DNA of 64,000 nucleotides from Escherichia coli (GTDB taxonomy: Bacteria > Pseudomonadota > Gammaproteobacteria > Enterobacterales > Enterobacteriaceae): NCBI RefSeq assembly GCF_003334385.1, contig NZ_QOWN01000001.1; one strand, given 5' to 3'. The stretch's first letter is position 1; each line of letters begins with the position of its first letter. Positions 5,241-64,000 of the stretch are shown piece after piece. Made by a program: the position numbers and the translations under genes. The notes below the pieces were generated by a model. The model made no database searches. It was not told the origin of the DNA and saw nothing but the letters and a program-made list of their open reading frames with translations.

Positions 5241-7349
5241 TTAATTTCGGTTTCGGGTGACTTTAATCACGTCTGGCATCACGCGGATTTTGCGCATGAT
5301 ATTCGCCAGATGCACACGGTCACGAGCGGTCAGACGAATAAAGGCGCTGTAGACGCGACCATCTTTCTCTTCCGTATTCAAACTTTGAATATTCGAAGTC
5401 GTGGTGTTAATTGCCGCCGTCAGGTTTGCCAGCGCACCCTGATGATTGAACATCTCCACCTTGATTTCGGTGATGAACTCCTGCGCCGTCTCTTTATCCC
5501 ATTCCACAGCCATAAACTTCTCTGGCTCTTTCTGGTAGCCACGGATATTACGGCAGGATTCATGGTGGATCACCAGACCTTTACCGGGGCTGACGTGGGC
5601 GATAATCGGGTCGCCAGGAATAGGGCGGCAGCATTTCGCAAAGGTGATCAGCACGCCATCGGCACCTTTAATGGGCAGATGTCCGTGGCTTTGGGTTGCC
5701 GGTGGAATGGAGGCGTCCCCATGTTGCAGATTTTTCGCGACCACCACGCTCATTGCGTTACCAAGTCCGATTTCTGCCAGCAGATCGTCAAGCGTTGCCA
5801 GCTTCATGCGATCCAGCTCGCGCTGAATATTTTCCTGCGGGATTTCATTCAGCTTACGGCTACCACCCAAAGCATGGTTGAGCAGACGACGGCCCAGGCT
5901 TACAGAATCATCACGCTTGAGGTTTTTCAGCAACTGACGAATTTTGGCGCGCGCTTTCGAGCTAACGACAAAGTTCAGCCAAGCGGCATTCGGGCGAGCG
6001 CCCGGAGCGGTAATGATTTCAACGGTTTGACCGCTGGTAAGCGGCTGCGACAGCGGGTAAGGCTGGCGGTCAACGCGTGCGCCCACGCAGGCATGACCGA
6101 TATCGGTATGCACTGCATAAGCGAAGTCGACGGGCGTTGCACCGGCAGGCAGCTCGACAATGCGCCCTTCCGGTGTGAAAACGTAAATCTCATCCGGGAA
6201 GAGATCGGATTTAACGCTCTCGATAAATTCAAACGAACTACCGGCGCTCTGTTGCAGCTCCAGCAGGCTTTGCATCCAGCGCTGGGCGCGGATTTGTGCG
6301 GTAGTACTGGTTTCGCCGTGCTCTTTATAAGCCCAGTGCGCGGCAACACCCATCTCCGCCATCTGGTCCATATCTTCGGTACGGATCTGGACCTCAACCG
6401 GCACACCGTGCGGGCCGATCATCGAGGTGTGCAAAGACTGATAGCCGTTCGCTTTTGGAATGGCGATATAGTCTTTCACGCGGCCCGGACGCGGCTTGTA
6501 CAGGCTGTGCATCTGGCCCAGCACGCGATAACAGGTGTCAGAATCATTGACGATCACGCGGAAAGCGTAGATGTCCATGATCGAGTGAAAACGCTGCTCT
6601 TTGAGCACCATTTTGCAGTAAATCGAATAAAGATGCTTCTCGCGACCACTGACGCGGCACGGTATTCCCGCTTCCTGCAAACGCCCTTCGATTTCAGAAA
6701 GAATCTTCTGGATCATCTCTTTACGGTTGCCGCGCGCGGCTTTCACCACTTCTTTGATTACGCGATAACGGTTGGGATACAGCGCCTCAAAACCCAGCTC
6801 TTCGAGTTCGGTTTTAATGTGGTGGATACCTAAACGGTGCGCCAGCGGGCTATAAATTTCGAGAGTTTCACGGGCGATGCGGCGACGTTTGTCCGGGCGA
6901 AGTGAGCCCAGCGTGCGCATGTTGTGGGTACGGTCGGCAAGTTTGATGAGGATGACGCGGATATCCTGCACCATCGCCATAATCATCTTGCGAAAGTTTT
7001 CGGCCTGCGCCTCTTTCTTATCGCGGAACTTGAGTTTATCAAGTTTCGACACCCCCTCTACCAGCTCGGCGACGCTTTTACCAAAAAGCTGTTCCATATC
7101 CTGGTAGGTGGCGGGAGTATCTTCAATCACGTCATGCAGCAGCGCCGCCATCAGCGTTTCATAGTCGAGTTTCATCTCGGCCAGAATGCAGGCAACCGCT
7201 ACCGGGTGCGTGATATAGGGTTCACCGCTTGAACGTGTTTGCCCCTCGTGAGCATCACGTGCAACGAGATACGCCTGCCGCAGACGCTTGATTTGGTCTT
7301 CCGGCAGGTAGGTTTGAATCAGTTGATTCAGGCTTTCAAACAGATACAA
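5241..7349 (-). CDS. spoT: bifunctional (p)ppGpp synthase/hydrolase SpoT
   Basis: 702-aa ORF starting MYLFESLNQLIQTYLPEDQIKRLRQAY. Has the HD domain motif HDVIEDT and lies downstream of rpoZ. Confidence 0.97.
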   Translation of the reverse strand: MYLFESLNQLIQTYLPEDQIKRLRQAYLVARDAHEGQTRSSGEPYITHPVAVACILAEMKLDYETLMAALLHDVIEDTPATYQDMEQLFGKSVAELVEGVSKLDKLKFRDKKEAQAENFRKMIMAMVQDIRVILIKLADRTHNMRTLGSLRPDKRRRIARETLEIYSPLAHRLGIHHIKTELEELGFEALYPNRYRVIKEVVKAARGNRKEMIQKILSEIEGRLQEAGIPCRVSGREKHLYSIYCKMVLKEQRFHSIMDIYAFRVIVNDSDTCYRVLGQMHSLYKPRPGRVKDYIAIPKANGYQSLHTSMIGPHGVPVEVQIRTEDMDQMAEMGVAAHWAYKEHGETSTTAQIRAQRWMQSLLELQQSAGSSFEFIESVKSDLFPDEIYVFTPEGRIVELPAGATPVDFAYAVHTDIGHACVGARVDRQPYPLSQPLTSGQTVEIITAPGARPNAAWLNFVVSSKARAKIRQLLKNLKRDDSVSLGRRLLNHALGGSRKLNEIPQENIQRELDRMKLATLDDLLAEIGLGNAMSVVVAKNLQHGDASIPPATQSHGHLPIKGADGVLITFAKCCRPIPGDPIIAHVSPGKGLVIHHESCRNIRGYQKEPEKFMAVEWDKETAQEFITEIKVEMFNHQGALANLTAAINTTTSNIQSLNTEEKDGRVYSAFIRLTARDRVHLANIMRKIRVMPDVIKVTRNRN

Positions 7350-7367
7350 GGGCGACCCGCTTTGTGA

Positions 7368-7643
7368 TTAACGACGACCTTCAGCAATAGCGGTAACGGC
7401 TTGTAATTCAGCGGCTTCCTGCTCTTGCTGTTCCTGGCGTTCGCGAACGTCGAGGATCTGGTTGTTGATCAGACCTTCTTCGATTTCGCGCAGCGCGATT
7501 ACAGTGGTTTTATCGTTTTCTTCCGGTACCAGCGGATCCTTTCCGCCTACCTGCATCTGACGAGCGCGACGCGCGGCGACCAGTACCAGGTCAAAACGGT
7601 TACCAATTTTCTCTACAGCGTCCTGAACAGTTACGCGTGCCAT
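7368..7643 (-). CDS. rpoZ: RNA polymerase omega subunit
   Basis: 91-aa ORF starting [31 protein letters not shown], recognised as RpoZ. Confidence 0.97.
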
Positions 7644-7697
7644 ACTTAAAAAGCTCCACAGGTGAAGAAATGACTGGGCATGATACTGAAATCAGGT

Positions 7698-10875
<3,178 letters not shown>

Positions 10876-59968: not shown

Positions 59969-60489
59969 TCATTCATCGATGCACTTTATAGAATCATCAA
60001 TGGCCATAATAGTACTATTAACTCTCAATTTTATATTTTTATCATCACTACAAATATTAACTGAATTTATATCAATGATTTTTTTATTCTTATCTTTTAT
60101 TTTATTTACTGTTTCAATGCAATCAGCGGCAAGTTGGAGTGGATTTAGATTTTTCAGATATGGTCTTATGATCTTTCCCTTACTTAATAAATAGCATGTA
60201 TAGGATTCGGAAAGTCCAGCATCTATTTTGTACCTCATTATATTAGATAAGGATGTGAGAAATTCCTTGTTATCATTCGCAGCCATATATGCCAGTCCGA
60301 GTTCAGCCTCTGCGGCCTTACAGGCAAAATAGCTTAGTGAACACGCTTTTCGTCCCTCTTTAGTACTGGCTGATATTAGTGCCCATAATATTGCTTTGTC
60401 TGCCAAATCTAACTCTCTCTGAAATTGTCTTGCAGTAACTGCACTCGCAGAAATAGAGAAAAAAATACAATTGTTAATAACCTTGCCAT
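59969..60489 (-). pseudogene. putative exported orphan immunity gene, split by a frameshift in a T7 run (probably corresponds to K-12 yibV)
   Basis: An ATG at 60489, 5 nt after the upstream toxin-remnant stop, opens MARLLTIVFFSLFLRVQLLQDNFRES*. The 145-codon ORF (59969..60406 in the track, TTG start) lies in another frame that is open back to 60508. One extra T in the T7 run (60459-60465) would fuse them to MARLLTIVFFFSISASAVTARQFQRELDLADKAILW..., which is signal-peptide-like. Confidence 0.5.
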
Positions 60490-60494
60490 ATTTT

Positions 60495-61095
60495 TTAGTC
60501 CGTAACTGTTAATGTGCTATCTGGCTCTGAAAATATTAACTCATTTAATTTTTGCATGTCATTAGATAAACCAGTTATACAACCCTCGGAACAGAATCGA
60601 GGTCCTAAAGACGGACCAAAAGCGTTTAAACAACTATGTATTGAAAATCCATTGCGATTATAAGTTCCTGTATTAACTGACGGTACTAATCGTATGCCGT
60701 CAGGTTTTCTATTGCTTGCTCCCGGGTCATTAACATTCCAACTCCATAGGCCTTGAGGTATTGGCCATCTATTTATAAATGTGTACAACGGGGATTATTT
60801 TTACATTGCATATTATTACCAGAAGCGACTGGAATACTAAGCACATCATAAAAATTATCATCACATGGTATATCTGAAACACACGAAAGCATACCTAAAG
60901 TTATGCTGTATAAACAGGTGGCTAATCCCAAGGGGATCGATTCCAGAAATCGGGTTCAACGGATACTGATAAAAATTCCACCTACCTTCCAGCCCAATCG
61001 GAGCCTGAGTGTTATACCGCCCCTGCTGCGGTTAATGTTACCGATAATAGTTATAGTACAGCCCTGATTCATCATCATACTACTGCTGCGGCAGT
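60495..61095 (-). pseudogene. degenerate orphan Rhs fragment: decayed core 3' end plus an L,D-transpeptidase-like (DUF2778/Tlde1-like) toxin C-terminus; probably K-12 yibS/yibW
   Basis: Minus-strand translation gives [53 protein letters not shown], with 3 in-frame stops. The next segment, [10 protein letters not shown]...ASGNNMQCKNNPRCTHL*, is in a shifted frame. The 97-codon ORF 60495..60788 follows (YTFINRWPIPQGLWSW...GFSIHSCLNAFGPSLGPRFCSEGCITG...). Confidence 0.65.
60952..61095 (-). repeat. Rhs core 3'-end repeat, copy 3 (degenerate)
   Basis: gggttcaacggatactgataaaaattcca... aligns with copies 1 and 2 with many substitutions and three in-frame stops. Confidence 0.75.
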
Positions 61096-61112
61096 CTGAT
61101 GAACTATTGCTT

Positions 61113-61574
61113 TTACGGATTCTCCTTATTCTTCCTTCTATCCATTCGCTTTAGCTTTTTGAGCTCTTGAAGTTTGCTCTTTGCATCAATATTACCGTTA
61201 TTTACAGCGAATTCCATCCAATAAATAGCTCTATTCAAATTATAATATTCTGATAATGTTGGATTTGTATCTGATAAAAAGACCCCATAATTAAACTGCG
61301 CTGTAACATTCCCCTGAGATGCTGATCTTTCCAAGAATCGCAATTGTTTGTAAATGTTATTTTTAGTAAAGCAGTAATATTGATATAGTCGAAATGATGC
61401 CTCTGAATCACCATGTTGTGATTTATACTTCAGTTTCATCAACTTTTCTTCACTTAAATCATAGGTCATTGCTGTAGACCCCATCATACTTTCGTTTTGT
61501 TTTATTTTCACATCAGCACCATGCAATTGACAAATAAAAGAGAAATAAAAAAATAGTAACAAGCATGCTTTCAT
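61113..61574 (-). CDS. yibG: Sel1-like repeat protein YibG with N-terminal signal peptide; putative immunity partner of the YibJ C-terminus
   Basis: 153-aa ORF starting MKACLLLFFYFSFICQLHGADVKIK (signal-like). Sel1-type repeats are present (ASQGNVTAQFNYGVFL, AVNNGNIDAKSKLQEL). It starts 9 nt after the yibJ stop. Confidence 0.85.
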   Translation of the reverse strand: MKACLLLFFYFSFICQLHGADVKIKQNESMMGSTAMTYDLSEEKLMKLKYKSQHGDSEASFRLYQYYCFTKNNIYKQLRFLERSASQGNVTAQFNYGVFLSDTNPTLSEYYNLNRAIYWMEFAVNNGNIDAKSKLQELKKLKRMDRRKNKENP

Positions 61575-61585
61575 ACATCTACAAC

Positions 61586-62530
61586 CTATCTTATATCACT
61601 GGGTTTTTCTGGCGTACCTTGCATATTAGAAATGGGGTGCCCAGATGGCCCATATGTTATCCAATTACCAAGGTCTTTTGTTGTTATAGCCATTAGATCC
61701 TTATTTGAATTAAGGTTCGTTGGTGCTGTTAGCACTGTATCCATTTTTAACTTACCATTAGTTCCTCGCCCCCACCACGTCCATAGCGTGTCAGGTCCTA
61801 TTACATTTGTATGTAACTCTTTAGCTAATTGGCTAGCAAATGAATTTTGTCCTTTACCTGTATTACAAGAAAATAACCAAACTGTCATCCCATCTTTATA
61901 ATTCCCATCAAATTTAATTAGATATGCTAGATCTTTAGCTGTCATGATACTGCGCGTTGCGGATTCAATAGATGTGGGGGTACCATGCCCCCCGATTGTG
62001 AAAACGCCTGGGATATTAATCTCATCAGCTACAGAATGGATAAGATCACTTTCGGGGTATAAATTTATATCAACCAAACCTTGCGGATCTACATTTATGA
62101 CCGGATTCAACGGATACTGATAAAAATTCCATCCCCCCTTCAGTCCAATCGGATCCTGAGTGATATACCGCCCCAGCAGCGGGTCATAATAGCGGTGGCG
62201 GTTGTAATACAGGCCGGACTCCTCATCATACTGCTGACCCGGCAGGCGAATGAGCTGCTGCAGATGATGCGGGTTCTCATCACTCAGCAGGTTGCCCCAT
62301 TCATCATATTCTGCGCACCACGCTGTTGCCCCTTCCGTGCTGATGAGCGCCAGCGGCAGGCCGCGATGGTCGCAGTGGTACAGGTGGATTTTTCGCGCCG
62401 GCGTGTACACCGGGTCCATCTGGTTTTGCATCTGCTCCACGGTCAGGCCGCACGATGCCAGCCAGCGGCGGCTTTCCTCACTCACCCGGTCAGCCAGGAT
62501 TTCACTTTCCAGCCGGTCGAGCATCTGCAC
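61586..62530 (-). CDS. yibJ: orphan Rhs C-terminal fragment: last ~150 codons of the Rhs core, [13 protein letters not shown], then a 162-aa polymorphic toxin-like C-terminus
   Basis: 314-codon ORF from a GTG. The frame is open back to 62566, immediately after the yibA stop. It contains [52 protein letters not shown]. The true start, if the gene is expressed at all, is uncertain (an internal ATG gives [10 protein letters not shown]). Confidence 0.8.
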
Positions 62531-62571: not shown

Positions 62572-63414
62572 CTATGAACGCTTCAGCTTATCAATAGCGG
62601 AAGTTATAATTTCATTGTCATCAAACTTGTACAACATAGTATCTAAAACAGGAAGTAGCGTTTTATCACCTAATTCACCCGCAGCTTCAATGATATCATC
62701 ATAAACAGTATTTTTTTTTAACTCATCGCATAAAACAGATAAAACCCTTTTATCTTTTCTGTAGGAAAGTCCGATTATTGCTTCAATACGGACTTCCTCA
62801 TTTTTATCCTGAAGCATCTCCACAAAACAATCCCTAATATCACTATTATCATATTTATTGATATTTATTGCAAATGCGGCCCAGTTTCTGACATCTCCAT
62901 TTGGATCTTTTAACAGATTAATCAATAGTGGAATTGTTGCTTTATCATTGATAACAGAAATAGCAAATGCTGTAGCACGTCTGACATTAGTCGATTTATC
63001 AAAAGCAGTAATTTGAGATTGTTCTACTATTTTAGGTGAATAAATTGGGTTTTTCTTGCATCGCTGAGCCGTTGACTCGATTGCCGTAGCTCGAACGCAA
63101 GCGCTCTTATCATTCAATGCCATATTGTTCAAAATATTAAAAACATTATCTTCGCATTTTTTGCAAATTTTTATTTGCCCGAGTATAAATGCTCCGATAT
63201 CTCTACGGATATAATTTTTATCAGAGCAGAACTCAATTGCCAATCTAACAGCGTCTTGCCCACCTCTTAACTGTAATACTCTGGCAGATGAAATCCTTTT
63301 CAAGGAATTGTGATCATCAAGTAAGCGAAATAATTCATCATCATTTAGTTTCTTACATTGATTATATAAACCATACTCTTTACTTGCCTTTCTTTTCTGG
63401 TATGTATTTGACAT
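62572..63414 (-). CDS. yibA: HEAT-repeat protein YibA; cognate immunity candidate for the RhsA C-terminus
   Basis: ORF 62572..63429. The ATG at 63414, preceded by a ggagg SD, gives 280 aa starting MSNTYQKRKASKEYGLYNQCKK. It has repeated D-x-x-x-x-VR-x-x-A-x-x-A-L/I units (DKSACVRATAIES, STNVRRATAFAIS, DPNGDVRNWAAFAI, DKNEEVRIEAIIGLS). It starts 20 nt after the rhsA stop. Confidence 0.88.
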   Translation of the reverse strand: MSNTYQKRKASKEYGLYNQCKKLNDDELFRLLDDHNSLKRISSARVLQLRGGQDAVRLAIEFCSDKNYIRRDIGAFILGQIKICKKCEDNVFNILNNMALNDKSACVRATAIESTAQRCKKNPIYSPKIVEQSQITAFDKSTNVRRATAFAISVINDKATIPLLINLLKDPNGDVRNWAAFAININKYDNSDIRDCFVEMLQDKNEEVRIEAIIGLSYRKDKRVLSVLCDELKKNTVYDDIIEAAGELGDKTLLPVLDTMLYKFDDNEIITSAIDKLKRS

Positions 63415-63434
63415 TGCAGGAACCTCCACAAGGG

Positions 63435-64000
63435 CTATCTTTTTTTATCGTTTGACTGTCTGGAGTGACGACAATTCCAGGCTTTCTGTGTGCTTTTTGC
63501 ATCTTTAGCACTAATATCACCACAATCAATTAGTTCCTGAAGTACGTCACATCTGTCGGGTTTTTTCCCATCACTCCAGAATCTGTCATTTATTATGTCA
63601 TTGACACGATCAGTTATCCCTGTGTCTGCAACATTTCCACGAGAAGCTATCATTGTTATATCTAATGCTAGTCCCGGATTATTCAATATTAGAGAGTCAA
63701 ATATTCTTTGTGATGCTGTATCGTTCCACCATTTTGTCAATGCTTTTGCAGCATTATCATCTGCTTGCTGCTGTGCAGGGCTTTTGGGCCATGGAATTGG
63801 CAAGGGGAATGGTCTAGGAAAAACTTCTAACCCCAGAGGATCTGTATTCGTAACTGGATTCAACGGATACTGATAAAAATTCCATCCCCCCTTCAGCCCA
63901 ATCGGATCCTGAGTGATATACCGCCCCTGCAGCGGGTCATAATAGCGGTGGCGGTTGTAATACAGGCCGGACTCCTCATCATACTGCTGCCCCGGCAGGC
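63435..64000 (-). CDS. rhsA: RhsA, 3' end only (end of conserved core, [13 protein letters not shown], 130-aa C-terminal toxin-like extension); gene continues beyond the right edge
   Basis: The minus frame is open to the window edge and reads [67 protein letters not shown]...[12 protein letters not shown]-rich core is followed by an AT-rich tip. Confidence 0.9.
63856..64000 (-). repeat. Rhs core 3'-end repeat, copy 1 (within rhsA)
   Basis: 145 nt that differ at only 3 positions from 62103-62247. Confidence 0.9.

Follow-up and report, generated by a model that had tools for sequence, protein, structure and literature searches.

A close described counterpart of the module analyzed here is the Tox-LD-peptidase/Imm57 system, predicted computationally on RHS scaffolds of beta- and gamma-proteobacteria with conserved H, S and C residues and with Imm16 or Imm57 proteins as partners (Zhang et al., 2012; PMC3482391); in the passages of that paper covered here, the toxin, scaffold and immunity pairing match those of our module exactly, and the K-12 locus is not mentioned by name. 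Rhs-DUF2778 fusions were published in 2020, where H121 and C131 were found to be required for toxicity and the fusions were tied to Imm16/Imm57 immunity (10.1101/2020.02.18.954545). The Tae7 family of that work, presumably the Tlde1c of later nomenclature, includes full-length proteins from Enterobacteriaceae and Burkholderiaceae with a DUF2778-type toxin at the Rhs C-terminus (e.g., Shigella sonnei WP_052983304.1). Judged by this published architecture our module is of a like kind, and full-length Rhs and VgrG-Rhs carriers of its type of tip also exist; however, the copy studied here is only a decayed orphan tip. For Tlde1a (Tae5-STM, STM14_0336, Salmonella Typhimurium, PDB 7UMA), the structure and activities have been reported, with R115 and G130 conserved across the Tlde1 subfamilies (PMC9638812). 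Tlde1a is a stand-alone effector of 173 aa partnered by a DUF2195 immunity protein (Tldi1), whereas our tip was Rhs-fused in its ancestry, is of a type partnered by Imm57 and survives as a pseudogene. In genomic setting the module resembles the orphan Rhs/CDI toxin-immunity cassettes found downstream of main rhs genes, which were reportedly dealt with by Jackson in 2009, Poole in 2011 and Koskiniemi in 2014. Such cassettes combine a core fragment, a tip and an immunity gene downstream of rhsA, as here; in some strains the present cassette is intact and could recombine onto the main gene, whereas the window copy is degraded.

The window (the whole stretch of 64,000 nucleotides of Escherichia coli DNA that was analyzed) represents the rhsA-mtl region in reverse orientation, and all features described below lie on its minus strand. 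In MG1655 the matching stretch is annotated with yibG, the pseudogenes yibS and yibW, and yibV (a 'PF15596 family protein'); coordinate transfer places yibS at 60861-61112, yibW at 60495-60859 and yibV within 59969-60406. The segment 60495-61112 is the K-12 pseudogene pair yibS/yibW and holds a dead Rhs toxin tip of the Tlde1/DUF2778 type, accompanied by a damaged Imm57 gene. It is the third module in the series of tips at rhsA, which runs in the order RhsA-Ntox34/YibA, YibJ/YibG and then the Tlde1-like tip. The main RhsA tip (63435-63863) matches Ntox34 in Pfam (PF15606, E 5e-44) and is followed by YibA (62572-63429), a HEAT-repeat protein. The second module, yibJ (61586-62530), is an orphan that is open for 314 codons and contains an Rhs core fragment (PF03527, E 1.6e-15); it is followed by the Sel1/TPR-like yibG (61113-61574), whose product is presumably the immunity protein of the YibJ tip. 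No Pfam family was matched by the ~170 residues of that tip after DPQGL; with the Ntox34 main tip and the other two, the locus therefore holds three tips of three unrelated toxin families. In MG1655, yibJ is a 702-nt pseudogene that ends ~250 nt short of yibG, whereas the window frame reaches almost to yibG. The identity of the third module is already known from the K-12 y-gene annotation, from NCBI labels and, as regards its architecture, from the 2012 and 2020 literature. In NCBI records the intact alleles, and the 97-aa remnant ORF too, are labelled tlde1 or DUF2778 in some genomes; literature searches with yibS, yibW and yibV returned unrelated matches or gene lists, and no paper was found that treats these pseudogenes as Tlde1-like.

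The module opens directly after the yibG stop codon with what is left of an Rhs core, its final ~60 codons (60930-61112, most of yibS), recognized by the NCBIfam RHS_core profile (E 3.6e-16) and by Rhs_assc_core (38.2 bits against a cut-off of 32.5). The Rhs shell itself (RHS/YD repeats) is absent from the window, and the remaining core codons are interrupted by four in-frame stops (61104-06, 61080-82, 61038-40 and 61032-34). An earlier reading of the same stretch (hereinafter the sequence-only reading) had counted three stops, which are the last three of these; the first lies just outside the interval that it treated. The core end, PxxxxDPxGL, precedes the tip at 60930-60975, and family-profile matches at the junctions of Rhs proteins of known structure support the placement of a core end at this point. 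Beyond the junction the toxin domain is divided between two frames, which together correspond to yibW: an N-terminal half in frame B (60776-60931) and a C-terminal half in frame C (60495-60772, stop included). Frame C translates as INRWPIPQGLWSWNVNDPGASNRKPDGIRLVPSVNTGTYNRNGFSIHSCLNAFGPSLGPRFCSEGCITGLSNDMQKLNELIFSEPDSTLTVTD, terminated by a stop at 60495-60497, and includes the segments NRWPIPQGLW, NRNGFSIHSC and FCSEGCITG and the terminal TVTD. The putative catalytic His is encoded at 60636-60638 and the putative catalytic Cys at 60579-60581, with a conserved Arg six residues before the His. The frame translations of the sequence-only reading are read as it quoted them, and every motif that it singled out is present, i.e., NNPxC, WPIPQGLW, R-x-x-F-x-I-H and, 15 residues further on, S-E-G-C-I.

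The lesions were defined by reference to intact E. coli alleles, namely S1-SRL-01-C, in which the tip lies in one frame, and PS10-3, in which the entire module is intact. The first frameshift is an extra base in a C4 run (G4 on the plus strand, 60932-60935), where the window has GAT CCC C TT GGG against GAC CCG TTG GG in the intact sequence. The second (60773-60775) is the loss of one base at 60774/60775 (CATTTAT-AA), which creates a TAA stop in frame B. The extra C had been pinpointed before and is borne out by the alignment, and the missing base falls inside the range (60771-60790) near which a compensating shift had been proposed. The view that the gene is dead likewise stands on the two frameshifts and the stops in the core; to these we add three changes that had escaped the sequence-only reading. 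One is a 9-bp in-frame deletion of one GNN unit in the frame-B half (~60821/60822); the other two are substitutions, G to W (NRGPIP to NRWPIP) and N to D (KPNG to KPDG), each at a position that hardly varies in the family. Programmed frameshifting of the toxin was considered and rejected: the two shifts lie 160 nt apart, and the upstream core has its four stops and no start codon.

With its frames repaired, the window sequence reaches 21.9 bits against the Tlde1_dom profile (PF10908; E 2.5e-4), below the 30.1-bit cut-off, and 14.5 bits against YkuD, also below the Pfam threshold. The 30.1-bit gathering threshold of Tlde1_dom is passed by an intact allele of this E. coli locus (34.9 bits, E 2.3e-8), and full-length relatives score 22-34 bits. 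The profile search proposed by the sequence-only reading thus fell short with the repaired decayed copy and succeeded with the intact allele. A search of 5.8 billion proteins with the intact-allele tip as query recovered 26 close relatives (E 7e-93 to 1e-26), all of them short Rhs tails and many with a precomputed PF10908 assignment. Their alignment shows the invariant elements GNN, C-x2-N-x2-C, R-x2-I-P-x-G-x-W, K, R, H-x-C, F-G-P and C-x-E-G-C, and in a wider alignment R, H-x-C and C-S-x-G-C stay invariant. Of the window motif FSIH-x15-SEGCI, close and distant members alike retain the His, Gly and Cys without exception and the Ser almost without exception; homologs lacking the His and the Cys, which had been named in advance as evidence against the assignment, do not occur among those aligned. 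Several further conserved cysteines in the tip family would fit a periplasmic protein. A deeper search with a profile of the toxin domain only, run against 1.84 billion representatives, returned 313 matches at E ≤ 1e-3. These include proteins of 1,378-1,616 aa with the tip at their C-terminus (all five scanned have RHS repeats and DUF6531), and the weaker matches are canonical Tlde1_dom proteins, of which one (P0161), found by the family profile at E 1e-7, scores 51.5 bits against Tlde1_dom.

A fold search with a model of the intact allele returned L,D-transpeptidase-fold enzymes only, Tlde1a among them. The modeled tip folds as an L,D-transpeptidase (YkuD) and is a member of the Tlde1/DUF2778 superfamily; in this model residues 109-121 of the loop between the His and the Cys have a pLDDT below 50. 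The earlier suggestion of an L,D-transpeptidase-type tip is thereby upheld by the Pfam match of the intact allele, the invariant His and SxGC Cys, and the fold search. One might still argue that the resemblance is coincidental and that the tip comes from an unrelated toxin family, pointing to the sub-threshold Tlde1_dom and YkuD scores of the repaired window sequence and to searches of the PDB by sequence profile, where the close family (A2), the broad family (A5) and the canonical member P0161 retrieved Rhs junctions only or nothing, and no LD-TPase. We give this notion almost no credence, contradicted as it is by the Tlde1_dom score of the intact allele, the invariant residues, the fold and the Imm57 partner. 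As the profiles reach no solved LD-TPase, residues were paired with those of Tlde1a by motif position and fold; the Arg, His, Ser, Gly and Cys of the window would on this basis be equivalent to R115, H121, S128, G130 and C131 of Tlde1a.

The tip shares with Tlde1a the Arg six residues before the His; however, the His-to-Cys spacing is 19 residues in the tip, as in YkuD-like domains, against 10 in Tlde1a, and the catalytic motif is SEGC against SHGC. The top structural matches include enzymes of other reactions, namely the carboxypeptidases Csd6 and Pgp2, and DpaA. The ancestral toxin could accordingly have had the same fold and the same role as a toxin but a reaction other than that of Tlde1a: cutting of the Lpp-peptidoglycan link (as by DpaA), formation of aberrant 3-3 or 1-3 cross-links, or pure carboxypeptidase activity (as in Csd6 and Pgp2). 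We regard this as a possibility of some substance, though an unlikely one. The L,D-carboxypeptidases Csd6 (H. pylori) and Pgp2 (C. jejuni) themselves differ from the tip in that they are not toxins but housekeeping enzymes of cell shape and possess additional NTF2-like domains; they share 11-13% sequence identity with it.

The Imm57-family gene (PF15596) occupies 59969-60489 in the K-12 yibV region, its ATG (60487-60489) lying 5 nt past the toxin stop, and matches Imm57 with E 1.3e-47 and 160.4 bits (cut-off 25 bits) when one frameshift is bridged. Alignment to intact versions locates this frameshift in the T-run at 60459-60465, which is one T short in the window and in MG1655; the leader MARLLTIVFF… is therefore out of frame with the Imm57 domain. 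In other strains the intact Imm57 is a protein of 173 aa that starts with MA[KR]LLTIV.FFSISA.A, an N-terminus that on inspection looks like a Sec signal peptide. Beyond the frameshift the window ORF remains open to its natural stop, unlike that of MG1655, and, the frameshift aside, it differs by 2 residues from the intact PS10-3 allele; what the window encodes is a form of 145 aa that has no leader. MG1655 and an O157:H7 strain carry an extra A at 60086, which the window, WAT, strain 118 and MB06102 do not have and which alone distinguishes the window from MG1655 over 1.3 kb. This indel and the SNPs are distributed differently among the strains, pointing to recurrent slippage.

We used a 1.3-kb query around the module to survey 5,426 complete E. 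coli genomes and recovered it in 3,700 of them, 3,335 at an identity of at least 99%. The K-12-type decayed allele is present in ~3,490 of the 5,426 (~64%), O157:H7 included, and the intact-type tip allele, named 'tlde1 domain-containing protein' by PGAP, in ~190 at an identity of at least 95%. A fossil cassette this common, of an Rhs-DUF2778/Imm57 architecture already published, leaves little weight to the remark of the sequence-only reading that a peptidoglycan-targeting tip on an Rhs scaffold is worth noting in a strain background without an obvious T6SS; for a pseudogene that most E. coli have in common, the T6SS status of the host is of hardly any consequence. The suggestion of that reading that intact versions be sought at rhsA proved fruitful: in PS10-3, 2014C-3075 and S1-SRL-01-C the orphan module linked to rhsA is intact. 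The five K-12-type genomes sampled (MG1655, WAT, strain 118, O157:H7 and MB06102) all have the two frameshifts of the toxin and the one of Imm57, and differ from one another by SNPs and homopolymer length only. Since K-12, O157:H7 and the three other sampled lineages share the same lesions, the inactivation is older than their divergence. Comparison of the repaired window allele with an intact allele gives a dN/dS of 0.27; most of the divergence therefore arose under constraint, before the death of the gene. A group of 1,264 genomes that differ near the first frameshift was considered as a possible set without the extra C, and this was rejected, as the two that were sampled (WAT and MB06102) show a SNP at 60905 and no indel.

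Residual function at the locus might take the form of activity from the 97-aa ORF (60495-60788) with the His and the Cys, of a toxin product restored by ribosomal or transcriptional slippage, or of an Imm57 restored by slippage that protects, as an orphan immunity protein, from Tlde1-type toxins delivered by other cells. Many records list the 97-aa ORF as a protein, and it belongs to a cluster of 480 sequences; yet it is without the N-terminal half of the fold, including the invariant Cys and GNNG positions, and has a TTG start, no export signal and no Rhs carrier. The spacing of the toxin frameshifts and the state of the upstream core, which led us to reject programmed frameshifting, also speak against a slippage-restored toxin. 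For Imm57, near-identity to the intact allele and the position of the frameshift inside a homopolymer (a T7 run one T short, with a strain-variable A-run nearby) would favor restoration, but the frameshift is common to five of the five K-12-type alleles inspected. On balance, we consider a partly living locus very improbable; neither the toxin nor an exported immunity protein can be made from the window.

In PS10-3 (~6710-8136 of its locus, compared with 59969-60945 of the window), an intact-type toxin allele lies beside a window-like Imm57 allele; the two allele types diverge much more over the first ~250 nt of the toxin gene than over its last ~200 nt, where they are almost identical. From such sequence comparison the toxin-immunity pair looks like a recombination mosaic. 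In 2014C-3075 (7532-8668 of its locus) the intact orphan tip has an ISEc1 (ISAs1-family) transposase immediately upstream, and the main rhs gene of this strain has a different tip with a YhhH neighbor, which shows cassette turnover at the locus.

A scan with one genome per species yielded 38 loci with the tip in Gamma- and Betaproteobacteria, Acidobacteria and one Rhodospirillales assembly. It ends open frames of 1,514-1,954 aa in a Nitrosomonas-like MAG, Paraburkholderia, Solilutibacter, Stenotrophomonas, Pseudoxanthomonas and Luteimonas. The carrier from Paraburkholderia (sp. J67) is a VgrG-Rhs fusion with the architecture Phage_GPD, Gp5_trimer_C, Phage_base_V, DUF6531, RHS repeats and tip, and is the one link between the tip family and the T6SS spike. 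ORF listings and N-terminal sequences revealed no obvious vgrG/PAAR ORF immediately upstream of seven full-length carriers. At most loci outside E. coli the tip is followed by an ORF of ~150-190 aa with a signal-peptide-like start, and in eight of the ten such loci tested from other genera this ORF is Imm57 (E 3e-9 to 7e-35); the other two matched no Pfam family. The leaders of these downstream proteins lend indirect support to a toxin that would act in the periplasm.

Taken with the architecture of these carriers, the locus is very probably the fossil of an orphan Rhs toxin-immunity cassette, in which nothing works any longer and whose ancestor would have combined a T6SS-delivered periplasmic toxin of the L,D-transpeptidase fold with Imm57. 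From the analogy with Tlde1a and from the domain architecture, we infer the chemistry and delivery route of this ancestor as follows. The toxin would have been the C-terminal tip enclosed in the Rhs shell, freed at the PxxxxDPxGL junction and carried by the type VI secretion spike to the periplasm of a neighboring cell. There its most likely target would have been, as for Tlde1a, the mDAP3-D-Ala4 bond in the stem peptides of peptidoglycan, with L,D-carboxypeptidase activity or the exchange of D-amino acids weakening the wall, while the producer would have been shielded by a Sec-exported, periplasmic Imm57 encoded 5 nt downstream. More speculatively, and in our estimate improbably, the Imm57-linked Rhs-borne clade, with its long His-Cys loop, SEGC and conserved Cys, may catalyze another peptidoglycan or lipoprotein reaction, and, as a separate matter, the near-intact Imm57 of most E. 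coli may act as slippage-restored, phase-variable orphan immunity. The assignment gives yibS, yibW and yibV a concrete origin, namely a dead Tlde1-type Rhs tip and its Imm57 gene, and carries little weight beyond a tidy annotation; the intact alleles of PS10-3 and 2014C-3075 are convenient material for a first biochemical test of the Imm57-linked Tlde1 branch.

Among the loci of other genera, partners other than Imm57, of 150-210 aa and with signal-peptide-like leaders, occur in Acidobacteria (L023-L025 and L030), in Rhodoferax and Rhizobacter (L031, L037 and L038) and at two further loci (L036 and L039). One partner from the Acidobacteria group and one from the Rhodoferax/Rhizobacter group were searched against Pfam and matched no family, and these partners may represent undescribed immunity families for the Tlde1-like tip. 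Two contigs assigned to Amycolatopsis orientalis (L033 and L034; 258 and 330 bp) code for the C-terminal 63 residues of the tip, 87% identical to the query from E. coli; most likely these very short contigs stem from contaminating enterobacterial DNA and are not genuine genes of an actinomycete.
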